NCBI GenBank assembly: GCA_020056715.1
Contig: JAGVHG010000057.1
Span: 1,256 to 65,255 of the forward strand
DNA: 64,000 bases
Direction of reading: 5' to 3'
Source: Phycisphaerae bacterium
GTDB lineage: Bacteria > Planctomycetota > Phycisphaerae > UBA1845
Positions within the stretch are counted from its first letter, which is position 1. Each line of letters begins with the position of its first letter. The position numbers were made by a program, and so were the translations under genes. Positions 2,639 to 63,395 of this stretch are shown piece by piece. Under the pieces are notes generated by a model. The model searched no databases. It was not told the origin of the DNA and saw only the letters and a program-made list of their open reading frames with translations.

Positions 2639-3934
2639 TTAATCGGAGACGTTGCCGACTTTGACGGGTTGGCGGCAGTGCGGGCAGATGGTGGCCGACA
2701 GTCGAGACCAACGTTGGGCAACGGCGTGTTCGCGGCGGATCATTTCCTGATCGCGGCGGGCGAGGTCGTCTTCTCGCTGGTCGCAGGCATTGCGGGCTTT
2801 GGCGAGAGCGTCTGTCCCTGCTTGAAGTTCGGCGATTTTGACCGCCAGCTCCCGCTCGCGGGTTGTGATCTGTTCGTGGAAGCGGGTGATATCGTAGAGC
2901 TGCCCGCGGAGTGCCGTATCTTTGGCACCGACCTCGGCTTCGCGGGCATGCAAGCTGGTTCTTTGCTCGTCGAGCGTGGAAGCGCCGTCACGCAACAGCG
3001 CTCGCCAGAGATTCAGCCGCTCCCAGGCCTCGGAGAGGTTGCCCTGCAAGTTTTCCAGATCCGGTTCGGCAATGGCGTACGGACGATCGACCTGAGCGGC
3101 GAAGGTTGAGCCGGCGGCGGTGGGTGATTCGTGCGGCGACGTCTTAGGAGCAATTTCGTGAACTCCGCCAATGAGCGAAGGTGTCAAAACCCCGGCAAAC
3201 GGCTGCACAACGGGCATATCCACGTGAGTGCCGACACTTGGCTCTAGGCACTTGAGCGACAGGCCGAAGGTGCCGACGCTGATCCGATCATCGTTCTGCA
3301 GGGGCATTAACGAGCAGCGTTTACCGTTGACCCACAGGCCCGTACGACTGCCCAAGTCGAAGATCGCCGGCCCGGTCCCGAATCTGAATAGTAAGGCGTG
3401 CCTTGAGGACATGTCTGCATGGTCGAGGCGGACGGTCGCGTCGTCGTGCCGACCGATGAGGACGACGGCGTCCTCAATCGACCATTGTTTGTCGGTATGA
3501 ATCAAGTGCAGCGATACCGGGCCGGGGAACTTAGTCGGGTCGGCGAACTTCATGCCGAATCCGGAATCGTCCGAACCACCGTCGGGAACTTGGATCGCCA
3601 CCTGGATCGTCGTGTCGCCGAGGGTGATGACGTCGCCGTCGGCGAGTACGGCGAGGTTCACACGGGTCTTGTTGAGTTGGGTGCCGCTGCTGGTGTGGAG
3701 GTCCTTGAGGAGTACCTCGGTCCCGGTGTTCACGATGACGCAATGGGCGTTGCTCATGTCCTCGTCGTGGAGGACGATGTGCGCCGGCCGCCGCGAGCCG
3801 ATGACGGTCACGGGGCGGCGGAGGTTCCACGTTTTCTGCCCGGCCGATCCCATTCCAGTAGTGATTCGGATCAACGGGGCGTCTGTGGGAAGTTCTACGG
3901 TAAGTTCAAGGATTTGCGCCGCTTGGTCATTCAT
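2639..3934 (-). CDS. FHA-domain protein: two FHA domains, coiled coil, C-terminal CxxC zinc-ribbon-like tail
   Basis: FHA-like segments VTVIGSRRPAHIVLHDEDMSNAHCVIV...LLKDLHTSSGTQLN and VVLIGRHDDATVRLDHADMSSRHALL...DLGSRTGLWVNG. C-terminus is CPHCRQPV. Confidence 0.85.
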   Translation of the reverse strand: MNDQAAQILELTVELPTDAPLIRITTGMGSAGQKTWNLRRPVTVIGSRRPAHIVLHDEDMSNAHCVIVNTGTEVLLKDLHTSSGTQLNKTRVNLAVLADGDVITLGDTTIQVAIQVPDGGSDDSGFGMKFADPTKFPGPVSLHLIHTDKQWSIEDAVVLIGRHDDATVRLDHADMSSRHALLFRFGTGPAIFDLGSRTGLWVNGKRCSLMPLQNDDRISVGTFGLSLKCLEPSVGTHVDMPVVQPFAGVLTPSLIGGVHEIAPKTSPHESPTAAGSTFAAQVDRPYAIAEPDLENLQGNLSEAWERLNLWRALLRDGASTLDEQRTSLHAREAEVGAKDTALRGQLYDITRFHEQITTRERELAVKIAELQAGTDALAKARNACDQREDDLARRDQEMIRREHAVAQRWSRLSATICPHCRQPVKVGNVSD

Positions 3935-3953
3935 CGCTTCTTATCCCTGCCCC

Positions 3954-4060
3954 CAGTTACGAGTTACCAGTTACCAGTTACGAGTGACCAATAACAATAA
4001 ATGGGATCGACTTGTCTCGGGTTCGTACATGGTAACTGGTAACTCGTAACTCGTAACTCG
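3954..4060. repeat. Palindromic heptamer-array element (CAGTTAC/GAGTTAC arm and its complement)
   Basis: Left arm cagttacgagttaccagttaccagttacgag (3954-3989). Right arm ggtaactggtaactcgtaactcgtaactcg (4031-4060). About 40-nt loop. Intergenic between the FHA gene start and surE. Confidence 0.85.
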
Positions 4061-4192
4061 CAAAGCACTGTTATGCGGTCTGCGCAATGTAGGCGTTCCC
4101 CCGATTGAATGTACAATTGCGCCCGAACGATCGGCAACTTGTCGATCCATCGTTATACGGACGGACCGAGATATGGCCACCAGGGATTGCGA

Positions 4193-4918
4193 ATGAATAT
4201 CGTATTGACCAATGATGACGGTTATGACGCCGCGGGGCTTCATGCCGCCTTTGACGCCCTTTCCGGTTTTGGGACGGTACACGTGGTCGCGCCGAAGGGG
4301 GAGCGGTCGGCTTGCAGCCACACGATTACGCTTCGTCGACCGATAACCGTCGAACGCCGGACGCACGCTGGATATGGTATCAGCTACGCGGTCGATGGAA
4401 CGCCGGCGGATTGCGTTCGATTGGCCGTGTCCGCACTCGTCGATCGGCCGATCGGGTTGATTGTCTCCGGGATCAACCACGGCGCGAACGCCGGGGTGGA
4501 TACTTTTTACTCCGGAACGGTTGCGGGTGCGCGCGAGGGGGCAATTTTGGGACTTCCCGCGATTGCCGTATCCCAGGCCATGCGCGGAACGGAGCCTAAT
4601 TGGCCTTTGGCGACGGAGATCACGGCCTTGCTCATCAAGGAGCTATTGGCCGAGCCGCTTCCCGGCCCGGGTTTTTGGAGCATCAACTTGCCATCGCCGA
4701 TTCCGCCCGACGCACGCAAGCACGTTCAGCGCGTGCCCCTCGCGGTCCATCCCATGCCGATGACCTTCGATCGTTCGGAGAGCGAGGACGGTAAGCTCAT
4801 GGAGTTTGACTACGGTGCGTCGTATTGGCTGCGCGACGTGACCGGCCCCAGCGACTACAGCGTCATTCGCGACGGCGGCATAGCGGTCACGGCCATCCCG
4901 CTCTACGGACGGTTTTGA
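4193..4918 (+). CDS. surE: 5'/3'-nucleotidase SurE
   Basis: MNIVLTNDDGYDAAGL N-terminus typical of SurE. ATG at 4193 is in frame within tracked ORF 4109..4918. Confidence 0.9.
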   Translation: MNIVLTNDDGYDAAGLHAAFDALSGFGTVHVVAPKGERSACSHTITLRRPITVERRTHAGYGISYAVDGTPADCVRLAVSALVDRPIGLIVSGINHGANAGVDTFYSGTVAGAREGAILGLPAIAVSQAMRGTEPNWPLATEITALLIKELLAEPLPGPGFWSINLPSPIPPDARKHVQRVPLAVHPMPMTFDRSESEDGKLMEFDYGASYWLRDVTGPSDYSVIRDGGIAVTAIPLYGRF

Positions 4919-9506: not shown

Positions 9507-9553
9507 GTTGAAACGCAGAATGATCCACCCAAACATGTTCCGAGAACAAGCAC

Positions 9554-9745
9554 GTCCCGTAGGGACGACCGAACATAGCCCAGCACTTCAGTGCTGGGTT
9601 TCTGATCGCCGCACGGCACAAAGTCCCGTAGGGACGACTGAGCGTTATTCAGTTTTTCAATCGTCCCTACGGGACTTAAGGTTTCATCCGGTATCTTCCC
9701 CAGCGTTGAAACGCTGGGCTATTCTCGTACCGTGCCTACGGCACG
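9554..9745. repeat. Cluster of six small palindromic (REP-like) hairpins
   Basis: Small palindromes: gtcccgtagggac (9554, 9623), gtccctacgggac (9663), cccagcacttcagtgctggg (9579), cccagcgttgaaacgctggg (9698), cgtgcctacggcacg (9731). Positions 9623-9637 and 9661-9675 form a perfect 15-bp inverted repeat. Confidence 0.85.
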
Positions 9746-10477: not shown

Positions 10478-10556
10478 CCCCCTCACCCTGCCCTCTCCCC
10501 CGAAGCGGGGGAGAGGGTTTGGAACCCCTCTCCCCGAAGCGGGGGAGAAGGGTTTG
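10478..10556. repeat. Two tandem hairpins of the ccctctcccc..ggggagaggg REP family
   Basis: ccctcaccctgccctctcccccgaagcgggggagagggtttgg followed by aacccctctccccgaagcgggggagaagggtttgg. Related copies at 46097-46135 and 56206-56240. Confidence 0.85.
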
Positions 10557-13500
10557 GTGACGCACTCTAAGCGTCAACCGACGAGTTGGTCAGGCTCGCT
10601 GCTCCTGGCCAGCCTCATCCTCGTCGTTATGGCGGGAGCAAACTACTTCGTCTACCGGCATGGTCGGCAAATCGTGCTCGCGGAAACCGAAGCACGCTTG
10701 CAGCGGCAACTAACCTACAACGCCACGATGGTGGAAGAGTCGATCGCCAAACATGTCAAGGAAGCGTCGTCGTGGGCTAAACAACCCATCATGGCGAGGG
10801 TGCTCGACGATGACAAGGACCATGAGATCGCAGAGCTTCTGGACGCCTTGGCCCGCCACGACCCATCCTTGCGGGAGCTGAGCTGCATCAACCGGGAGGG
10901 GGTGGTGCTTGCTTCGACCAACCCATCCATGCTGAGCAAAACGGATCCCTCGTCTGCAGCGCTAGTTCCGCGGTTCGAAGAGGGCCTACGCTACTCGATC
11001 GTGAACCAAGGGCAGGAATGGATCTTCCGCGCGCCGCTGCTTGTCGAGTTTGACCGAATGGAGGTGATCGGCGTTCTGCAGGTGGTCGACCTAGACGCCG
11101 GACTTATTCACGCTGGGACCCAATGGTGGACGGGGCTTGTAACGGCATCGGGAGATATCCTGTTCGAGCAGGGGGTGCCGGTGGGGCATCGCTGGCCGCT
11201 GGAGGCCGCTGCAACGGATCCGTCGAACCCGGAAGGCGTGATGACGCAAACGTTGCCCATCGCATTGCCGCCCGGCGGGGAAGGCCCGGAGTGCTTCCTG
11301 GCTATAGCCGAGCGGTACGACACTCTGTTTGCTCCGGTGCGCGTCCTCTGCGCCATGTTCGTCTGGACCACGGCAGGCTCATCGTTTGTGGTCATCCTGT
11401 TAATCACCATTTTTGCCCGTCGCCGTCATCTGCTGTTGCTGCAGTTGGAAGAGAGTGCCGCCCGGACGCAGAATATTCTCGACTCGGCCCTGGACGTGAT
11501 CATCAGCATGGACGCAGGCGGCGTCATCACCACCTGGAACCCGCAGGCCGAAAAGGTGTTCGGCTGGACGGCCGACGAGGCCGTGGGTCGCAAGCTGGCT
11601 GAGACCATCATTCCCGAACGCTTACGCGATGCGCACCTGGCGGCGCTGGGCCGCTCCCTGCAAACCGGCGAAGGACGCGTGCTGAACAAGCGAGTCGAGC
11701 TGTCCGCGCTTCACCGGGACGGCCACGAGTTCCCCGTTGAAATCAGCCTCTCGGCGGTTTCCTCCGCCGGCGGGTACACGTTCAACGGTTTCCTGCGGGA
11801 CATCACCGAACGGTTGCGACAGGAACAGGAACTGCGCAAGCTATCGCAGGTGGTCGAGCACACGTCCGCTTCCGTCATAATCACGGATATGGAGGGGCGG
11901 ATCGAGATCGTCAACCAGGCGTTCGTGGACATCACCGGGTACACCCCCGAGGAAGTCAAGGGGAAGAACCCCCGTTTCCTCAAATCCGGCCTGACACCCG
12001 CGCGGACCTATGGCGAGATGTGGAATGAGTTGTCGGCGGGACGGAACTGGCGAGGGGAGCTGCACAACCGCGGGAAGAACGGTGAACTGTTCTGGGTCCT
12101 GTCGGCCATCTCCCCCGTGCAGGATGCACAGGGTAAGACCACGCACTACGTGTCGGTGCAAGAAGACATCACGGTGCGGAAGCAGATGGAGGACGACCTT
12201 CGATCCGCCGCGCGCACGGACAAGCTCACCGGCCTGCCCAACCGGGCGCTCCTCCTGGATCGTCTGCAGCACTCAATTGAACGCGCCAAGCGTCTGCCCG
12301 AATACTACTTTGCGGTCATGTTCCTGGACTTTGATCGCTTCAAGCTCGTCAACGACAGCCTGGGGCATGATGTCGGCGATCTGCTCCTTCGGGCGATCGC
12401 CGCGCGGCTCCGGGATAGCCTGCGGACCGGCGATTCGATGAGCCGCGATGCGGAAGGCACGTCGGTGGGCCGGTTAGGCGGCGATGAGTTCGTTATTCTC
12501 TTGGATAGCATCAAGAAGCCGGAGGACGCCGCTATGGTGGCCGCCCGATTGCTCAAGGACCTTGAGGCCCCCTATCAACTGGGCGAGCACGAAGTTCACT
12601 CGACGGCGAGCATCGGGATCGTCTGCAGCAATACCCAATACGATAATGCTGAGGACATCCTACGCGACGCCGACACCGCGATGTACGAAGCGAAAACACA
12701 CGGCAAGGCGCGCTTCGTCATGTTCGATGCGGGCATGCAAACGGCCGTTCAGAACCGTCTTCAGCTCGAAAACGACCTGCGGACGGCCATCGACGAGGGC
12801 GCCATAACGCTTGCGGCGGAGGTGGGTGGTCCAGGTTCTTTGTCGGGTGGCCCAGGTCCTTTGGACCTGGGGGAGCCGATGATTTACGCTCCGCGCCATA
12901 CCCACGCATCTTCGCCTCCCCCACCTCCAAAGGAGGTGGGCCACCCAAAGGAGGTGGGCCACGCGCTTGGTTCAGTCCCCCAGCCCAAGGACTGGGGCAC
13001 CCGCGCCCGCACCGACCAATTCTTCCTCGTTTACCAACCGATAGTATCCCTGGAAGATGGGGAACTTCTCGGCGTGGAAGCCCTCGTCCGTTGGGATCAT
13101 CCCACACGCGGGCTGGTCTCGCCGGGCGAGTTCATCCCCATCGCCGAGGAGACGCGGTTGATCCTGCCGCTAAGCAACTGGATCATCGAGCAAGCTTGTG
13201 CCCAGTTCATGAAGTGGCGGCAGCAGGCCCCGGATCGGGCGCCCGCCTACATCAGCGTCAACCTGTCGCGGGTTCAGTTGGCGGAACAGGACCTGGTCGA
13301 GCAGATCGTCCGGATGGTTCAACGGGCGGGGATGGAACCCGGCCAGTTGCAGCTTGAAATGACCGAATCCGGACTCCTCCAGGACCGCAAAGCGGCCAAG
13401 AAGGTCCTTAGAGCACTGAAGGACGCGGGCATTCGTCTGGCGATGGACGACTTCGGCACCGGACAATCTTCGCTATCGTGCCTGCACGAGCTTCCTTTCG

Positions 13501-37795: not shown

Positions 37796-37827
37796 AATTA
37801 CGAATTACAAATGACGAATTACAAAAG
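37796..37827. repeat. Direct heptamer array AATTACG/AATTACA/AATGACG overlapping the res stop codon
   Basis: aattacgaattacaaatgacgaattacaaaag. No inverted partner seen nearby. Confidence 0.7.
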
Positions 37828-40800
37828 GGGGGAAACGCGGGCGAGGGCGGCGGGGACGTCGGTCACGGTGCTGACGACATCGTAGGACCAGTGGCCGAAG
37901 CGGGCGTCGGCGTTGACGGCGTCGACCCAGCGCTGGGCGGCCTGGGTCTTTATATCGCGCAGGGGATCGTATCCCTTGGTTTCGAGAATCAGGTATCGTT
38001 CACCGTCGCAGCGTAGGCGAATGATGAAGTCGGGCACGTAGTCATGGGTCTGGCCGTTGTGGAAATAGGGAATGGCAAAGCCGAGTCCCGCATTCTTGAC
38101 GAAAGCGACGACTACTTCGTGCGTGTCGATGTGGTAGGCCGCGGACTGCTCCCACTTTTTCGTATCCGCAACCACATAGTTCACGTGGCTCCGGATAACC
38201 GGGCGCACATCGCGACTGGTTCTGAAGTCCACCTCCGCTGTCGATCCCGGGCCGCGATTGGCCTCGTAACGGGGAATCTCCGGCGCCTCGCCGGCCGTCG
38301 AGTCGGGCTTGATCCCCTCGACCAGACGCTCAACGATCCAGCCGTAATACGGCGAGAGGAACGCATCGACCAATTGAGTCGGCGGTAAGGGTTGGACCTT
38401 CTCGCGAAGATATCGCTCAATAATCCGAACAATCTGCTGGAATAGCACGTGGGCGGGAGCTTCACATCCGGGCTGGCTCACGTAATCGCGCGTCAAGTCC
38501 CGCGCCATCTCAAAGCACAGCGCCTGGAATCGCTGTCCCTTCCGATACGGGCTTAAATCCACATGCTGCAACTTTCCCGGCCCAACCAACGACGGCCGCC
38601 CCTGATTATTCGGCAGCATCCCCTTCATTTGGACTTCGGGGGGAATGTTCATGGGGTCCAGTTGAAGCGGTGCCAGCGCCGACCACTCCACCGTCACACG
38701 ATTTCGAATCGCCTGTTGATACCCCTCGACGCGCGGGAACCGAATTTCCAAGTGTGCTCGTTCCGGAAGCGAATGGACGTGATGCCTCTTTTCCTTCGGC
38801 GGCTTCGGTCCGCCTTGCTGCGCTTTGAACGGAATGACTTCGAACGGGACGCCGAAGACGGTCGCGACCTCTTCGGGAAACTTGTCGCCCGGTCCAATAT
38901 CGGGGTAGTTTTTCCGCCGCAGCCCACGTCCCACAACTTGTTCGCAAAGAAGCTGCGACATGAATGGCCGCAAACCGATGATGTGCGTCACGGTGTTGCA
39001 GTCCCACCCCTCGGTGAGCATCCCCACGCTGACGATGCAACGAATATCGCGCCCTGGCGGATGCAACGGGCGCTCCAGTTTTTTCGCCAACTCCTCGAAT
39101 CCCTCGGGGTAGATGGGCATACCCTGCCGGTTGGTCGGCCACTGCGTCTTACCAACAGTGTCCAAGGTCAGTCGCATCCATCGCGTCTCGTCCGCTTTCG
39201 CCTCTCCGCTGTCGGTTTCGCGCACGACTTTCGAGTCCACGCGAATGGTGTTGATCTGACCGTCGCGATTGACGAACCCCATAATCCGCGCCGACGGAAT
39301 CCCCATCGGGAGCTTGTCCTCGCCGAGCCATTCGAAAACGATCTTCGCAATCCGCGTGTTCTTACAAACGGTGATGAACACCGGCGGGCGCGGATCATCC
39401 TTGGGTTCCTCCCATTCGCAACGTAACTGCTCCCACAGCCCGCCGAGCATGGCGATGGGCGTGTGCGCCCATTTCAAAATGGCCTCCGGTTTCGGGCTGG
39501 CCTTCTTGCCGCCTCGTTCAGCGGGTGTGAGCTTCGGTAGAATCCACCGCCAGATGTTCAGATACCCCGGAATCTCCGACCCTGTCGTATCCCGCACCGC
39601 AAGCTGCGGAATCTTTACCAACCCCGACTCAATGGCGTCCGTCAGCCCGAAGTCGCTGACCACCCACGGAAACGTGCGATTGGTTTCCTGTCCGACACGC
39701 CCCAAGAAATAAGGAGTCGCGGAGAGGTCCACGCAAAAGTTGATCCCTCGCAACTTCTGTATACGGTCCAGCCCGTCGATCCATACCGTGGCCTCTTTGA
39801 AGAACTCATCGGCCTCGTCCTCGCCGATCGTCTCGTCTTCGTCCTCATCCGGTTCGGGGCGGCGGATACGGTACGCGTGATGCGCCTCATCGTTCATAAT
39901 GAGGATGTTCTGTTTACCGCGCACCCCCGAACCCAACACCTTGTTCACCAGCGACGTGTCGCTCTCCACATACTTGTATGATTCGACCTTGACCTTCCGA
40001 AGACACCCGTCACGGTCACGGTCCTCTTCGAGCACAGTGAGCAACCCCGCCGCCACCTGTCGATCAAACTCGTCCTGCGTCAGATACCGCGTCCCCCGCG
40101 CCGTCGTCGTCTTGGGACCGATCTTGATTTTTTCCGTGATCCGCACCGGTCGACCGGTTTTCGCAACCTTTGCCGATGTTCCGCCCACCTGCACCGACTG
40201 CGGTTCGAATACGTGCTAGTTGGTCACGAGCACGCGGCCGCGAGTGAGCAAGGGCATCAAGTGGGATGGAACAAGGTCGCGCGTTCGGTACAGGCTTGCC
40301 TCGCCGCGTTCGGGCTTGAGTTCGTCAAGGCGATTGCGGATGGTCACGTTGGGGCAGACGACCAGCACCACGTCTGAGAACCGCGCATCGCCCCGCGAGT
40401 TGATCTTGTTGAGAATGGTCCAGGCCGCCAGCATTCCCATGACGGTCGTCTTACCCGCGCCGGTGGCCATTTTGCAGGCGTAGCGCCGGAACGCCGCGAT
40501 GCCCTCGGTTTTCCGCTCGTCGCTAGGCTCGTCAGGCGGAACGTCGATGCCTTGCAGGAAATCCGCCCGCGCTTCGGTCAGGAAGACGATGACCTCAGCG
40601 GCTTCGAGCTGGGCGAAGAAGAGGCGCTTATCACGGCCGTCGCGTTGCCAATACTCCAGCAATTCGAGGGTTGTCCGGGTGACGCCCGGCCAGCCTTGAG
40701 CGCGCCAGTCTTTGACACGCTGGCGGATAAGGTTAACCAATTGGAGCTCGACCCAAACTCCGCGCGCGGGGTGATTCGGGTCGGTGAGTTGTTCTCGCGG

Positions 40801-40935
40801 GTCACGATAGAAATACCCTGCGGCGCGCCGGCCCGGTAGCCGCTTCGGCTCTTCACCTTCCTCGATGTACCAGTGTTCGGCGGGTTCCGCGTAGGGTGAA
40901 TTGAGGATCGGCTCGGCGACTTCGAAGTTGCTCAC
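37819..40935 (-). pseudogene. res: Type III restriction enzyme Res subunit (SF2 helicase + PD-(D/E)xK nuclease) interrupted by one in-frame TAG at 40216-40218
   Basis: ORFs 40216..40935 (Walker A KMATGAGKTTV) and 37819..40194 (NDEAHHAY, helicase motifs, VPDFII...LILETKG nuclease) share one frame. The junction reads VLVTN-TAG-HVFEPQS. Confidence 0.85.
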
Positions 40936-41780
40936 GGGGTGCCGAGCCTTCTGAGCTTTTTGACTCTGGCTGGAGGTAGGTAGTTCTGCCCGGTAACCAC
41001 CCTTTGGCCAGTTTTTTGCTCCAACTCCAATCGGGCCTTTTTGGCGATGTTTCCGCCGCTCTTGGCGGCGAACTTGTTTTCATCCATGCCGGTGGCGTCG
41101 GTTTTTTCGGCGATCTGTCGCGTGGATAGCTCGGCGAGGGCGGTGAAGATGAGTTCGGCCTCGCTCATGTGGTCACGAAGGTTCTGGCTCTTGAGACCCT
41201 TGAGTGCCTTGTGATCTTGAACCGTGACCTCGGACCATTCCTGATGGATGATGTTGGTGAGAACGGCGTACTCCTCGCCTTTCTTGATTTCGTGGCCGGC
41301 CCAGTAGTCGGTCAGCTTGTTACGGGTCTCCTGCCCGGTCATGCGTTGCTGAATCCACTTTTCGCTGCGGCCGTGCTTCTGCCAGGTCTCGCGGGCACGG
41401 TCGAGGGAACGGGCAGGGTCGGCCATTTCCTGCATCCGTTCGTAAACGACCTTGGCCAGCCAGAGCTTGATGGGCTCGGCTTTGGGGCTGGGAACGCTCT
41501 GGACGAGGCGGAGCAGGGTTTCGGGGCTGGCTACGTCGGTTAGGCGCTGCTTCCCGTCTTCCGCCGCCATTTTCAACTGGTAACAACTTGTTACCACTTC
41601 ACTTCCCTCTTTAGTCAAGCGGCCTTTTAAGACTTTCCAGTACTTTCTGGACGCTTGGTGGTCCGGCTGTTGGGTCAGCACCTGGATGATGTCCACGACG
41701 GAGAATAACCAGGTTTCGCTCTTCTCGTCGTAAACACGACGGATCTCCCGCTCTTCGAACACGACGGGGAGCATTTTCAT
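40932..41780 (-). CDS. Bro-N domain / DinD-like protein inserted between mod and res
   Basis: N-terminal VVFEEREIRRVYDEKSETWLFSVVDIIQVL (Bro-N-like). The C-terminal half resembles E. coli DinD (recalled from memory). Its stop overlaps the res ATG. Confidence 0.65.
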   Translation of the reverse strand: MKMLPVVFEEREIRRVYDEKSETWLFSVVDIIQVLTQQPDHQASRKYWKVLKGRLTKEGSEVVTSCYQLKMAAEDGKQRLTDVASPETLLRLVQSVPSPKAEPIKLWLAKVVYERMQEMADPARSLDRARETWQKHGRSEKWIQQRMTGQETRNKLTDYWAGHEIKKGEEYAVLTNIIHQEWSEVTVQDHKALKGLKSQNLRDHMSEAELIFTALAELSTRQIAEKTDATGMDENKFAAKSGGNIAKKARLELEQKTGQRVVTGQNYLPPARVKKLRRLGTP

Positions 41781-41807: not shown

Positions 41808-44800
41808 CTACTCCATGTCACGAAGACTCTTCACTACCAATAACTCATTGCCGCGGTCGTCGATGACCTTCACGGCGACCTCGCCGTGCTTACCGGCTTC
41901 GAAGGGTGCGCTCACGGTACCTGCGAGGTGCTCCCAGACCGACGGGTCGAACTCGGCCTTGAGGGAGCGTTTAAGGTCATCCCAGGCGGCCGTGCGGGGA
42001 AAAAACGCTTGGCAGACGTGGAAGCACAGGCCGTTGTAGTCGGTGTCGAGGAACCACGCGGGTACGTCGTTTCCGGGGCGCGGGTCCGTCTGCATGGTGA
42101 TGGGATCGAACACGTCGAGGCCCAGAAGCTCGACTTGGTACAACGAGTTGTCAGTTGTCAGTTTTCGGTTGTCAGTTGCTGAGTGCTGACCGCTGACAAC
42201 TGATAACTTCACGTCCGGCAGGCCGCACACACTGAAGCTTTGGCTGCTGCGCATGTTCTTGAGCAGGTCGCCCATGGTGAGGTCCATGGTGGCCTGCACG
42301 TAGGTGGCCGGAACGCCGACGGCGCGCTCGCAGTCGTCGATCAATTTGCGGGCGTTAGACTGGATCGCAAAACCGATGACGAACAAGTGCGCGTACTGCT
42401 TGGCGTGCGCTTCGCGGGCGGCCTCATAGACCGTGCGTTCGCTGATGGCGCCGTTTTCGGGTCCGAAGACGATGGCGACCGGGGAAGTTGTCAGTTTTCG
42501 GTTGTCAGTTGTCAGGGACGAAGGGACGTCAGGAGGCCGTTGAGGATCCGACCCACTTCCGACGCCTGTGCCAGAAGCTCCGCTGATGCCGTCGACGCAA
42601 GAAACGTCAGGTTTGTCGCGATCTCGATCTGGGTCTCCAGTTCCGACAGACTCCCCCTCGCGTGTCGCACGAACTGGCGAAACTCCCCCGGAGATTGCCG
42701 GCCGTGGCCCTCGGCGATGTTGCTGGGGATCGACACGGCCGCCCGCCGCATCTGGCTCACCAACCCGTACCGTTCCTCCGCCGGAAACGTCTGTGTCGCC
42801 CGATAAATTCCCGTCACGAGGTCCATCGCCTTCTGCCACGCTACCAAGTCCCGATACCCTTGCCCCATTTTCTTCTCCTGACAACTGACAACTGATAACT
42901 GATTCAACAATGGCCTCGGCGGATAGCGAAAGCGTCTTGGCCGGGGGGCGAACATTCTTGAGGGTTACGCTCTTTCCGCCGCCGAGTTGGAGGACGGGGC
43001 TGCGGCGGAGGACTTCCAACATGCGATCGACGAAGCGGGACGAGGACGAGTTGTCAGTTATCAGTTGTCGGTTGGACGAGTTGTCAGTTATCAGTTTTCG
43101 GTTATCAGTTACTGACAACTGAGAACTGACAACTTCGTCGTCTTCCCAATCGACGGGCGTCGGGATGGTCGCTTCGACGCAGAAGGGGCCGGTGACGCGG
43201 GTGATCTTGGGATCCTTTTCGGGGCGGTCGACGAGGACTTCTTCCTTGGGCGGCTCGTTGTTGGCGATGGATTCGAGGGTGACGTGAGGCACGATGCCGC
43301 CGACTTCCTCGCCCTTTTTGTTTTGCTTGCGCTGGTAAACGAACCCGCCGGCCGGGCCGCGGGATTCGTCTTGCAACTCGTAGTAATCGAAGGTGGCGGT
43401 GAGCAGCCGCTGCCGGGCCAAAGCCAACGGCACGCGGCTGGTGTCGATGGTGATCCACCGTCGGCCCCATTGCTCGGCCACGTACGCCGTCGTCCCGCTG
43501 CCGCACGTCGGATCGAGCACAAGGTCGCCAGGGTCGGTTGTCATCTGTAGGCAACGCTCGATTATGGGTAGCGCGGTCTGTACGACATACATCTTCGCGC
43601 CTCCAAATTGGTTTTGGCCGACGGTGTCGGTCCATATAGTTGTCAGCGGAAAAACCGGGAAGTCGTTGAAAAATCGAAGATAGGCTAATCCGTTCTTTGA
43701 GGCACGAACACGCCCACTTTTGACCAACGTCTTCATGCCGTCTTCGCTCGTGCTCCAAAACCGCTTTCCTGGGCGGTAGGCTTTGCCTTCAACCTCGACT
43801 GGAAAATCGCCGGGTGGCTTTGATGAAGTGATGTCGCCCAAACCGAACATCTTTGCGCCATCCGGAATCGAAACTCTTCCGCTGAGTTCATCTGGTGTCA
43901 GTCTTCGCTCTGTCCCGTCAGCGTGTAAGACGTGAGTGATCCCTGTGCCTCCGATGCCGCCGGGAATTTTGTCCGCAAAAAGCATCTTTGTTTTGACCCG
44001 CTCGTGATCCTTGGAATACCAAAGCACGAAATCATTTACGATTGGCAGATAGTCCCCAGACGCGGTGCTCGTCTTTTGAGCGATAATCACACGCTGGAAA
44101 TTCTCCGCCCCGAACACCTCCTCCAGCAACTCGCGGACGTGATGAAGATTCGCATCGCTGATTTGTACAAACATGCTCCCGCTCGGGGCGAGTAGTTCCC
44201 GTGCAACCAGTAATCGGTCGCGCATGTAAGTAAGGTAGGAGTGCAAGCCGAGTTCCCAGGTATTGCGGTAGGCTTGGACCATTTCCGGCTCGCGGGTCAT
44301 ATCTTCGTCGTCGTTGTGCTCGACGCCGCGTTTGCGGACGAAGGGCTGGAAGTTGCTGCCGAACTTCACGCCGTAGGGCGGGTCCATGTAGATGCACTGG
44401 ACCTGCCCGCCGAGGCCTTCGTAGTTGAGCAGGGAGTTCATCACCACCAGCGAGTCGCCGAGGATGCAGCGGTTCACCCAGCCGTTTTTGTGTTCGTAGG
44501 CGCGGAGGACCTGGTCGTGGATGGGGTGCTCGCGGTCGCCGAAGAGGTCGAAGAGGGAGAGCTGCTTGTCGCGCTTGTGGCCTTTGAGGGTTTCGAGGAT
44601 GGCGGCGGTGGAGAGGCGCTCGTGGATGAAGAGGGGGAGGGTGGGTACGTCGAAGCTGAGGCGCTCGGCCTTGCCCGCCCAGTTGAGGAAGGGCTTGGCG
44701 AGGCGCTTGAGCTGCTCAGCCGCGTTCGCGGCCTCGCTTAAGTTGTCAGTTGTCAGTGGCCAGTTGTCAGTGAGTAGGCGCTCGATCGCTGCAGCGAGCT

Positions 44801-45143
44801 CGTCGTCGCCATTTTGCTTGGCCCGGACAGCGAGGTTGTGAAGCTCTTCGGCGAGCAAAGCGAGCCGCCCGCTGACAACTGATAACTGAGAACTGACAAC
44901 TCGTATCTGCTGTTCGCCCAACTCACGAGCGGGATTCTGGCCGTCCCAATTCAGCTCGGGCGATAGCGATGAGTCGTAGCGGTAGGTCTTTGGGGGCTTT
45001 TTCTTGCGGAACTGGGCCTGGGTGCCGACGTCGGGGCGGAGGAGGGCAGCGGCGGTGGGGTGAGTGTAGCTCTCGGCCGACCGTGCGGCTGTATTTGGCT
45101 TCGCAACTTTGCTGCGCTTCGTCGCTGAGACTCGCTTGGCCAT
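41808..45143 (-). CDS. mod: Type III-like DNA methyltransferase (Mod, beta-class N6A/N4C), carrying several in-frame repeat-element insertions
   Basis: IYMDPPYGVKFGSNF (motif IV) lies before DPTCGSGTTAYVAEQWGRRWITID (motif I). Conserved C-terminal domain. Start placed at ATG 45143 (MAKRVSATKR). Low-complexity inserts read QLSVVS / TDNRKLTTDN. Confidence 0.85.
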   Translation of the reverse strand: MAKRVSATKRSKVAKPNTAARSAESYTHPTAAALLRPDVGTQAQFRKKKPPKTYRYDSSLSPELNWDGQNPARELGEQQIRVVSSQLSVVSGRLALLAEELHNLAVRAKQNGDDELAAAIERLLTDNWPLTTDNLSEAANAAEQLKRLAKPFLNWAGKAERLSFDVPTLPLFIHERLSTAAILETLKGHKRDKQLSLFDLFGDREHPIHDQVLRAYEHKNGWVNRCILGDSLVVMNSLLNYEGLGGQVQCIYMDPPYGVKFGSNFQPFVRKRGVEHNDDEDMTREPEMVQAYRNTWELGLHSYLTYMRDRLLVARELLAPSGSMFVQISDANLHHVRELLEEVFGAENFQRVIIAQKTSTASGDYLPIVNDFVLWYSKDHERVKTKMLFADKIPGGIGGTGITHVLHADGTERRLTPDELSGRVSIPDGAKMFGLGDITSSKPPGDFPVEVEGKAYRPGKRFWSTSEDGMKTLVKSGRVRASKNGLAYLRFFNDFPVFPLTTIWTDTVGQNQFGGAKMYVVQTALPIIERCLQMTTDPGDLVLDPTCGSGTTAYVAEQWGRRWITIDTSRVPLALARQRLLTATFDYYELQDESRGPAGGFVYQRKQNKKGEEVGGIVPHVTLESIANNEPPKEEVLVDRPEKDPKITRVTGPFCVEATIPTPVDWEDDEVVSSQLSVTDNRKLITDNSSNRQLITDNSSSSRFVDRMLEVLRRSPVLQLGGGKSVTLKNVRPPAKTLSLSAEAIVESVISCQLSGEENGARVSGLGSVAEGDGPRDGNLSGDTDVSGGGTVRVGEPDAAGGRVDPQQHRRGPRPAISGGVSPVRATREGESVGTGDPDRDRDKPDVSCVDGISGASGTGVGSGSDPQRPPDVPSSLTTDNRKLTTSPVAIVFGPENGAISERTVYEAAREAHAKQYAHLFVIGFAIQSNARKLIDDCERAVGVPATYVQATMDLTMGDLLKNMRSSQSFSVCGLPDVKLSVVSGQHSATDNRKLTTDNSLYQVELLGLDVFDPITMQTDPRPGNDVPAWFLDTDYNGLCFHVCQAFFPRTAAWDDLKRSLKAEFDPSVWEHLAGTVSAPFEAGKHGEVAVKVIDDRGNELLVVKSLRDME
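42147..42208. repeat. Heptamer-array palindrome (GTTGTCA arm / CTGACAAC arm) in frame inside mod
   Basis: gttgtcagttgtcagttttcggttgtcagttgc ... ctgacaactgataac. Translated in mod as KLSVVSGQHSATDNRKLTTDNS. Confidence 0.85.
42486..42902 (-). mobile_element. IVS-like cassette: inverted heptamer arms flanking a four-helix-bundle gene, nested in frame in mod
   Basis: Arms gttgtcagttttcggttgtcagttgtcag (42487-42515) and ctgacaactgacaactgataactg (42878-42901) are inverted repeats. The cargo has its own SD (caggagaagaaaATG). The mod frame stays open across all ~139 codons. Confidence 0.75.
42512..42868 (-). CDS. Four-helix-bundle protein (23S rRNA intervening-sequence protein / Avd-like family)
   Basis: 118 aa: MGQGYRDLVAWQKAMDLVTGIYRATQTFPAEERYGLVSQMRRAAVSIPSNIAEGHGRQS..EFRQFVRHARGSLSELETQ. 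Matches the remembered signature of this family. Reading frame differs from mod. Confidence 0.85.
   Translation of the reverse strand: MGQGYRDLVAWQKAMDLVTGIYRATQTFPAEERYGLVSQMRRAAVSIPSNIAEGHGRQSPGEFRQFVRHARGSLSELETQIEIATNLTFLASTASAELLAQASEVGRILNGLLTSLRP
43049..43133. repeat. Heptamer-array palindrome in frame inside mod
   Basis: gttgtcagttatcagttgtcggttg..gttgtcagttatcagttttcggttatcagtt / actgacaactgagaactgacaac. Translated as VVSSQLSVTDNRKLITDNSSNRQLITDNSS. Confidence 0.85.
44742..44901. repeat. Inverted heptamer arms bracketing ~100 nt of the mod N-terminal coiled-coil region
   Basis: gttgtcagttgtcagtggccagttgtcagtg (44742-44771) and ctgacaactgataactgagaactgacaac (44872-44901). Peptide reads VVSSQLSVVSG...LLTDNWPLTTDN. 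Confidence 0.8.
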
Positions 45144-45248
45144 TCGACTCCTCGCTGCGTGCTGTCGCCGACGCTGTCTTCCAAGGGCGGATTGGAGTCG
45201 GAGTATAGGCGAAGCGACGGGGGGCGGGCAACGGGAGGAAGGCAGGAA

Positions 45249-45470
45249 GCGACGGATGGGCGAAGGGTTGAAGGGCGGAAGAAACGTCAAAAAGACAAAA
45301 CGTCAAAAAGTCGAAATGAGGCACGAAGGCATCCGCCGCAGGCGGACCCTGCTCCGGCACGAAGGGTTGAAGGGATGAAGGGCGGAAGAAACGTCAAAAA
45401 GTCAAAACGTCAAAAAGTCGAAATGAGGCACGGAGCGACGGAGCGACGGATGGGCGAAAGGTTGAAGGGG
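45249..45470. repeat. Tandem ~100-bp direct repeat (about 2.3 copies) upstream of mod
   Basis: The unit gcgacggatgggcgaagggttgaagggcggaagaaacgtcaaaaag(a/t)caaaacgtcaaaaagtcgaaatgaggcacg occurs at about 45249 and 45361, with a partial third copy at about 45435. It contains an internal acgtcaaaaag duplication. Confidence 0.8.
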
Positions 45471-63245: not shown

Positions 63246-63254
63246 GCGGCACGG

Positions 63255-63361
63255 ATTGTCGATTGGAGATTGTCGATTGTCGATTGAGAGTTCGGCGATA
63301 GGTGATCAAATACCGGCCTAATCGATTCGCCGCAGGCGGACAAATCGACAATCGACAATTG
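63255..63361. repeat. Palindromic heptamer-array element (ATTGTCG arm / CGACAAT arm)
   Basis: attgtcgattggagattgtcgattgtcgattgagag (63255-63290) and caaatcgacaatcgacaattg (63341-63361). Lies between the NUDIX and rhomboid genes. Confidence 0.85.
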
Positions 63362-63395
63362 GGCAGCCACCAGGGTCTCGGCTTCCGGCGTGATG

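Follow-up and report, generated by a model that had tools for sequence, protein, structure and literature searches.

Short selfish DNA that settles inside genes was reportedly described by Ogata and colleagues in 2000 as Rickettsia palindromic elements, which are said to insert in frame at permissive surface positions and to be translated within the host protein. Tandem heptamers are another group of repeats, and the cyanobacterial STRR repeats presumably belong to the same class as the heptamers treated here. Direct repeats of TAACTGA occur in Beggiatoaceae, Cyanobacteria and Bacteroidetes, with a patchy distribution across phyla (MacGregor 2015, PMC4679880). Almost all of them are intergenic and lie just upstream of start codons; forward copies bring stops in all three frames and are found only at the ends of open reading frames (ORFs), and reverse copies occur in variable loops of ORFs (PMC4679880). 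The same paper leaves intervening sequences unmentioned (0 occurrences of the phrase in PMC4679880). The intervening sequence of Coxiella is 428 nt long, is closed by a 28-bp terminal stem and is cut by RNase III (PMC4990558). Its S23p ORF is preceded by the Shine-Dalgarno (SD)-like AGAAGA and by tandem GACAGAT heptamers, and the heptamer copy number differs among strains (PMC4990558). Here, we analysed a 64-kb window (the whole stretch of 64,000 nucleotides from contig JAGVHG010000057.1 of a Phycisphaerae bacterium), in which the Type III-like methyltransferase gene mod contains four hairpin patches (A-D), all built from inverted heptamer arrays. In our judgement, these patches are probably selfish palindromic elements that are tolerated in permissive linkers of Mod and have been purged of stops. 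Patch B has the architecture of a Coxiella/Leptospira rRNA intervening sequence inside a protein gene.

Heptamer arrays and avoidance of in-frame stops in mod

The host gene, the patches and a gene nested in patch B are located as follows.

41808..45143, minus strand: mod, Type III-like, 1,111 codons (PF01555, E 1e-29; PADLOC MTase_III PDLC03632, E 8e-164)
42147..42208, unstranded: patch A, a heptamer hairpin without an ORF, located in the last Mod linker and encoding KLSVVSGQHSATDNRKLTTDNSL
42486..42902, minus strand: patch B cassette, 417 nt, consisting of a 5' array (42878-42902), the SD sequence AGGAGAA (42873-42879), the gene and a 3' array (42486-42515)
42512..42868, minus strand: nested four-helix-bundle gene (S23p / 23S rRNA intervening-sequence protein), 118 codons plus TGA
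43049..43133, unstranded: patch C, a heptamer hairpin lacking an ORF, with a 30-nt tandem duplication inside it (GGACGAGTTGTCAGTTATCAGTTGTCGGTT, two copies)
44742..44901, unstranded: patch D, inverted arms at 44742-44771 and 44872-44901 with 100 nt between them, partly palindromic

The host protein has the beta-class N6/N4 methyltransferase domain with DPPY and FxGxG-type motifs by which a Type III Mod is recognized, and neither its DPPY motif (IYMDPPYG) nor its motif I (DPTCGSGTT) is disrupted. The nearest solved structures are the Type III Mod subunits 6k0w and 4zcf. Its 6,268 homologs are typically ~900 aa long, compared with 1,111 aa here, and identity to homologs amounts to 60-77% over 806 conserved columns. 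One minus-strand ORF (41808-45290) spans all patches, with a likely start at ATG 45143 behind GAGGAG.

A scan with GTTGTCAGTTGTCA (at most 2 mismatches) returned 21 matches in the window, where 0.22 were expected. All 21 are confined to 42147-44900 within mod, and the number of GTTGTCA-type arrays elsewhere in the window is 0. Independently, Tandem Repeats Finder reported period-7 arrays at 42146-42178, 42486-42515, 42878-42902, 43049-43134, 44741-44771 and 44872-44901. By both methods, the patches reported in a first-pass annotation of this DNA are real and lie where it had placed them. The array unit is CAACTGA or TAACTGA, which corresponds to TGACAAC and TGATAAC on the mod strand and to GTTGTCA on the plus strand. 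Each array comprises 3-4 imperfect units with no more than two consecutive perfect or identical ones. No gene of their own was detected in patches A, C and D.

In a perfect array, each frame meets a TGA every 21 nt, as the first-pass annotation had correctly calculated, and its claim that each would-be in-frame TGA is substituted in mod was borne out. Across the five TGACAAC-sense arms, TGA was kept in 0/5 in-frame units and in 14/14 out-of-frame units (Fisher p = 8.6e-5). The in-frame units have become CGAAAAC in three cases, CGACAAC in one and TGGCCAC in one, so that the codon reads CGA four times and TGG once. Since exactly the in-frame TGA units are substituted, mod stays open. Translation likewise gave the expected peptides. 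The TGACAAC-sense arms encode TDNRKL (three arms), NRQL (one) and DNWPL (one), and the arms of opposite orientation encode peptides of the QLSVVS type. In patch D, the mod frame reads VVSSQLSVVS...LLTDNWPLTTDNL, flanking a helical segment.

Outside this gene, GTTGTCA arrays were found at no fewer than 120 genome loci in many phyla. They lie outside long open frames in 133 of 141 cases, and seven of the eight inside such frames have the stop-free orientation. The 133 non-coding arrays keep TGA in 80% of their units, with perfect GTTGTCA by far the commonest unit, and two intergenic cassettes (L173, L180) contain 4-5 perfect TGACAAC units. GTTTTCG, the plus-strand form of the substituted unit, occurred as the middle unit only once among the 120 genome loci, there also encoding TDNRKLTT in an open frame. 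Because the non-coding arrays keep TGA and GTTTTCG was seen once, GTTTTCG is not the consensus of the element; in these loci, intergenic copies did not share the variant found in mod. We infer that the three identical GTTTTCG arms arose by copying of an already translatable arm rather than by three independent double mutations.

Intergenic heptamer palindromes of other units are located in the window at 3953-4062 (AGTTACC/AGTTACG) and at 63254-63362 (GATTGTC), the latter ~9 nt upstream of a start codon. Owing to these palindromes, several heptamer types can be assigned to this genome.

In an alignment with 120 homologs, the patches fall exactly in four inter-domain linkers of variable length.

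Site A linker: median 16 aa in the 120 homologs, 24 aa in this gene
Site B linker: median 18 aa in the 120 homologs, 144 aa in this gene
Site C linker: median 18 aa in the 120 homologs, 37 aa in this gene
Site D linker: median 41.5 aa in the 120 homologs, 68 aa in this gene

Relative to most homologs, the arrays are in-frame, stop-free insertions with substitutions on the in-frame TGA units only, as had been proposed. Other homologs have different palindrome-derived peptides at these four sites. Array-derived peptides at site D are also present in P0017, P0059, P0083 and P0015, reading ISSQLSV...KLTTENL in P0017 and P0059. Linker peptides of the FQVSS...KLETR type in P0015 and P0062 derive from a GTTTCGA heptamer, and the PSP...GEG linker motifs of other homologs correspond to the paired arms of a CCCTCACC/GGTGAGGG hairpin. 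A 34-nt unit in two tandem copies at 10491-10557 of the window, with the hairpin CCCTCTCCCCC-GAAG-CGGGGGAGAAGGG, resembles the palindromes that give these PSP...GEG motifs.

The homolog P0003 (locus L206), which is the closest relative in the flanks, is ~90% identical in nucleotide sequence on both sides of every patch, yet it lacks all four and has unrelated sequence at the four sites. Because the flanks are so similar and the linkers unrelated, the linkers turn over much faster than the rest of mod. Separately, the central target-recognition region of Mod (43560-44110) is only ~40% identical to P0003, compared with ~90% in the flanks, and has a G+C content of 52% versus 60%, which suggests recognition-domain swapping.

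The nested gene of patch B and its relatives

For the pair 42486-42515 / 42878-42902, the arms were found as described in the first-pass annotation, but they are not a bare palindrome: they bracket a complete gene. The nested protein matched PF05635 (E 5e-39), TIGR02436 (E 4e-37) and NF008911 (E 5e-40), and more weakly DGR Avd. As this PF05635 gene is read from the same strand in the +1 frame relative to mod, the two genes overlap by 357 nt. It ends at a TGA supplied by the first TGACAAC unit of the 3' array. Read in the mod frame, the linker encodes, for example, GLGSVAEGDGPR. When a 437-nt stretch was folded, the minimum-free-energy structure had the two arms paired as a terminal stem. Rfam returned no family over the patches and no rRNA in the window.

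Five lineages (the window, P0004, P0015/L210, P0062 and L211) share the position of the cassette in Mod and its +1 frame, and mod is left open in all of them. Its 5' junctions agree within one or two codons, and its 3' junction lies exactly before [S/R]PVA. L211 and L210 were recovered with the Mod C-terminal domain alone and are therefore unbiased toward read-through. Among free-standing genes of the family, the equivalent frame was open in 0/78 (mean 3.8 stops; 1-3 in the most G+C-rich copies). Shuffling synonymous codons within the nested genes left this frame free of stops with a probability of 0.12 for the window and 0.15, 0.17, 0.05 and 0.05 for the further copies. In the remaining alternative frame of the nested gene, there are 5 stops in the window and 3-9 stops in the four copies counted. 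These figures speak for selection that keeps the mod frame open. Broken nested cassettes were also sought via fragments of the C-terminal domain; the three cases on long contigs were frameshift-ridden assemblies without a cassette.

A comparison of the close variants L001 and L210 located 16 of the 21 substitutions in the overlap at codon position 3 of the nested gene. The nested protein differs by 4 aa, and the mod-frame peptide by 18 of 124, while the Mod C-terminal domain has 28 nucleotide changes and only 2 aa changes in 200. From this pattern, we conclude that purifying selection acts on both the nested protein and the C-terminal domain. Given 18/124 versus 2/200 changes, the mod-frame peptide of the cassette is unconstrained; its sequence drifts freely and need only stay open. 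It is plausible that the frame is fixed at +1 because only in this frame can synonymous changes keep the overlap with mod free of stops: a stop would need a third-position T of the nested gene before AA, AG or GA, and such a T should be synonymously removable.

The same kind of read-through was detected in other hosts. The mod-frame peptide of the cassette weakly matched positions 282-389 of the PADLOC PglX model PDLC02522, and the true small protein did not match it. A phmmer search of this peptide against 1.84 billion representative proteins yielded seven proteins (P0244-P0250) that share the off-frame signature EPDAxGG (from SQMRRAA) and QH[RS]GG (from SNIAEG). Three of them are Eco57I/MmeI-type (PglX-like) methyltransferases, two have no Pfam match, one is a 102-residue fragment and one is a Ser/Thr kinase (P0244). 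At the protein level, the PglX-like methyltransferases and the kinase contain the same -1-frame read of a four-helix-bundle gene, and the flanks are heptamer-coded where inspected. In the kinase, the insert directly follows HRDLKPANIL. A bare GTTGTCA palindrome (MSVVSCQLSVVREDAARRPLTTDNWQLTT) lies in frame in another Ser/Thr kinase gene on the Gemmataceae chromosome OY969623.1 (L015, 3694-3780). It is located between HRDLKPANIL and DFG, i.e., at the same site as the cassette in P0244, and its in-frame TGA has been changed to TGG.

A metagenome scan with four nested proteins retrieved 80 loci. Among 70 free-standing cassettes whose flanks were long enough, 55 bordered a heptamer array on one or both sides, and the arrays were inverted in 25 of the 27 that had them on both. 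The heptamer varies by locus, although most units share an ACT/AGT core. The neighbourhoods were those of housekeeping genes, with cassettes co-oriented between ychF and ZIP, lpxA and lpxI or argB and argF, or placed before mutL or pheT. A specific tie of the cassettes to restriction-modification genes was not supported by these neighbours. None of 20 related cassettes tested lies in rRNA (0/20). Near GTTGTCA arrays, no four-helix-bundle gene was found in 120 fetched 8-kb genome loci, and most GTTGTCA arrays are therefore solo.

Probable selfish insertion and competing explanations

We propose the following course of events. Widespread tandem-heptamer elements would have colonised the four hypervariable mod linkers in the form of inverted arrays, as selfish, mobile or expansion-prone insertions that selection on mod presumably filtered. 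The stop-free GTTTTCG arm may then have been copied between patches. Mod would be translated straight through the patches, giving disordered loops (B, C and A) or a helical hairpin (D), and the small four-helix-bundle protein would be made from its own start. The AlphaFold model agrees with this in part: Mod residues 82-135, at patch D, were predicted as a helical hairpin continuous with native helices (predicted local distance difference test, pLDDT, 77-91), patch B was unstructured (pLDDT <30), patch C fell in a linker of low confidence, and patch A was flanked by two strands. On the mod strand, the predicted RNA folds reached -25.9 kcal/mol (z -3.2) for patch A, -35.7 kcal/mol (z -6.6) for patch C and -75.3 kcal/mol (z -5.5) for patch D, and z scores over all patches ranged from -2.3 to -6.6. 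By analogy with rRNA intervening sequences, such stems are likely RNase III targets. A cut would sever the mod mRNA whenever translation fails to keep the arms apart and might thereby free the message of the small gene.

Several points weigh against selfish insertion. No transposase or target-site duplication was identified, and mobility was not observed. As the window holds no other GTTGTCA copy, the arrays may have come with mod or spread within it. Identical junctions in the five lineages could reflect one ancient insertion instead of repeated colonisation, and there is an ascertainment bias, with four read-through examples having been found with a query that included the read-through peptide. 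The AlphaFold model of Mod is poor overall, and with a mean pLDDT of 54 the term disordered loop is weakly supported. Finally, the first-pass annotation had held that mod is, or recently was, selected to be read through. Stop avoidance and dual-frame conservation support this claim, but selection on mod at present is not assured, as the premature stop in the downstream res may mark a decaying system.

A broader view can be put forward only tentatively, and we would rather doubt that all of its parts hold together. Four-helix-bundle genes with inverted heptamer arrays would form one widespread autonomous cassette, whose termini or solo remnants would account for the long-unexplained tandem heptamers seen in many phyla. 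The cassette would ride on host transcripts (rRNA, housekeeping operons, ORFs of defence methyltransferases or kinases), surviving within ORFs as a true dual-coding overlap in one compatible frame. Its pentameric protein would recognise its own arrays and process host RNA together with RNase III. If this were true, the element would be coupled to how Mod or PglX is expressed.

Phase variation was the alternative offered by the first-pass annotation: a frameshift caused by one 7-nt unit gained or lost would turn the gene ON or OFF. Such a switch could also act on the C-terminal domain of Mod alone. In its favour, a 7-nt unit does not preserve the triplet frame, and heptamer numbers vary between strains in the Coxiella intervening sequence (PMC4990558). 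For the family, though, the idea has some substance: a relative offers a candidate tract. In L211 (ERZ27247363 k141_1995739), 16 units of CC[AG]ACAA at 4537-4648, located 3' of the cassette, are stop-free in all frames. The Mod C-terminal domain of L211 is +1 out of frame, and losing one unit would restore the frame; the N-terminal frame stays open, in the wrong frame, across the whole C-terminal region. However, L211 comes from a short-read metagenome assembly, and its unit count is uncertain. As known from phasevarions, slippage at useful rates needs tracts far longer than 3-4 imperfect units. The window arrays never exceed two consecutive identical units, and the unit substitutions that remove TGA also break the perfection of the repeat. 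With arrays this short and imperfect, the switch is weak as an explanation for this mod, and we regard it as unlikely.

Just as unlikely, in our view, is recruitment of the inserted peptides for protein function, be it as a longer coiled-coil arm at site D or as flexible tethers between domains. The confident helical hairpin of patch D, continuous with native helices, and the recurrence of ISSQLSV...KLTTENL-type peptides at site D in several diverged homologs would fit such a role. However, most homologs have short linkers, the relative with ~90% identical flanks has unrelated sequences at all four sites, and the mod-frame peptide of cassette B changes far more readily than the C-terminal domain.

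We give still less credit to mod being a decaying pseudogene whose ORF is open by chance in 60% G+C sequence. The nonsense codon in res, the long spurious ORFs that high G+C produces in this region and the shuffle probability of 0.12 for this single gene are consistent with decay. On the other hand, catalytic motifs are intact, identity to homologs is 60-77% over the conserved columns, substitutions affect 5/5 in-frame TGA units and 0/14 others, and the second alternative frame of the nested gene has 5 stops where the mod frame has 0. In addition, four other lineages have retained the arrangement, with the C-terminal domain under strong purifying selection. Inversion of the enclosed segments between the arrays as recombination sites, switching mod ON and OFF, is hardly credible: inverted repeats of 25-30 bp do flank segments of 100 nt and 362 nt, and flipping any patch or interior would put at least one stop in mod and give an OFF state, but no recombinase is encoded in the vicinity, the arms are short as well as imperfect, and the nested gene has the same orientation in all five cassette-B lineages, with no inverted variant seen.

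The surroundings of mod and comparison with known systems

Downstream of mod lie two further genes.

40932..41780, minus strand: Bro-N domain cargo gene (PADLOC candidate PDC-S13), between mod and res
37819..40935, minus strand: Type III res, with ResIII and REase_III matches and one in-frame TAG at 40216-40218

The TAG, a nonsense mutation unless it stems from a sequencing error, replaces the conserved W of VTNWHVFEPQ and leaves ORFs of 239 aa and 791 aa. Between mod and res, each homologous locus has different cargo (the window, L001, L004, L005, L206, L208, L210 and L211). Contents elsewhere comprise an AAA_15/21 ATPase, RhuM, DUF6978 with DUF1828/1829, NTP_transf_2 with a Y1 transposase, AAA_14/DUF4143, AAA_21 with DUF3226, and Peptidase_M78. 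In L206, the closest relative without heptamer patches, a Y1 (IS200/IS605-type) transposase gene lies between mod and res at 3454-3906. Upstream of mod, a ~65-nt duplicated block rich in 8-nt repeats (GACTTTTTGACGTTTT and others) was found at 45233-45450, with the terminator of an RRM-protein gene on one side and a promoter-like TTGCCC-18-TATACT on the other. In the terminator and promoter scan, terminator-like sites were no more numerous than in shuffles. At greater distance, tandem repeats with periods of 21, 42 and 63 at 1398-1747 (CCGGATGGCACCATGCCTCCG and related) probably code for a proline-rich heptapeptide repeat. Two matches to Acido-Lenti-1 RNA above the gathering score, at 9553-9598 (minus strand) and 9699-9745 (plus strand), are convergent, and another was found in locus L131.

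The locus joins three separately known puzzles, namely S23p rRNA intervening sequences, tandem heptamer repeats and palindromic selfish DNA translated in genes. An S23p gene bracketed by inverted heptamers occurs outside rRNA, in housekeeping operons and inside protein-coding genes, among them mod in at least five lineages. This offers handles on the roles of intervening-sequence proteins and heptamer repeats and on the persistence of selfish elements in ORFs, and provides a clear natural case of two overlapping frames that are both under selection. For annotation, it is a warning that a nested gene may lie hidden behind 'long' Mod or PglX proteins.

With phase-variable Type III mod genes, this locus shares the class of the host gene and a repeat unit inside mod whose length is not a multiple of three. 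Unlike there, the tracts are short, imperfect, palindromic and located in linkers, with a long tract only in the relative L211. The TAACTGA repeats have the same unit as the mod arrays bar one base (CAACTGA, with TAACTGA variants within). In contrast to those repeats, the mod arrays are inverted pairs deep in an ORF, and their forward copies are translatable through the change of TGA to CGA or TGG.

The likeness to Rickettsia palindromic elements drawn in the first-pass annotation is apt as a description of behaviour, in that insertion is in frame and the host ORF is preserved. There is no sequence relation, however: here the elements are built from tandem heptamers, one patch has its own gene and the hosts belong to free-living phyla. 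Rickettsia palindromic elements are dispersed in many copies of a conserved consensus of 100-150 bp; in the 64 kb covered here, the heptamer occurs only in mod, and the arms are repeat arrays and no fixed consensus. Closest in architecture are the 23S rRNA intervening sequences of Coxiella and Leptospira. Both are elements of ~420 nt (417 nt here, 428 in Coxiella) with a terminal inverted-repeat stem of ~25-30 bp, a PF05635 ORF, an AG-rich SD and heptamers beside the ORF. Excision by RNase III without religation is a trait of the rRNA intervening sequences, and here the stem is a predicted one. While their host is helix 25 or 45 of 23S rRNA, the host of patch B is the protein-coding mod, the whole stem consists of heptamer arrays, and the host frame stays open, so that the two genes overlap.

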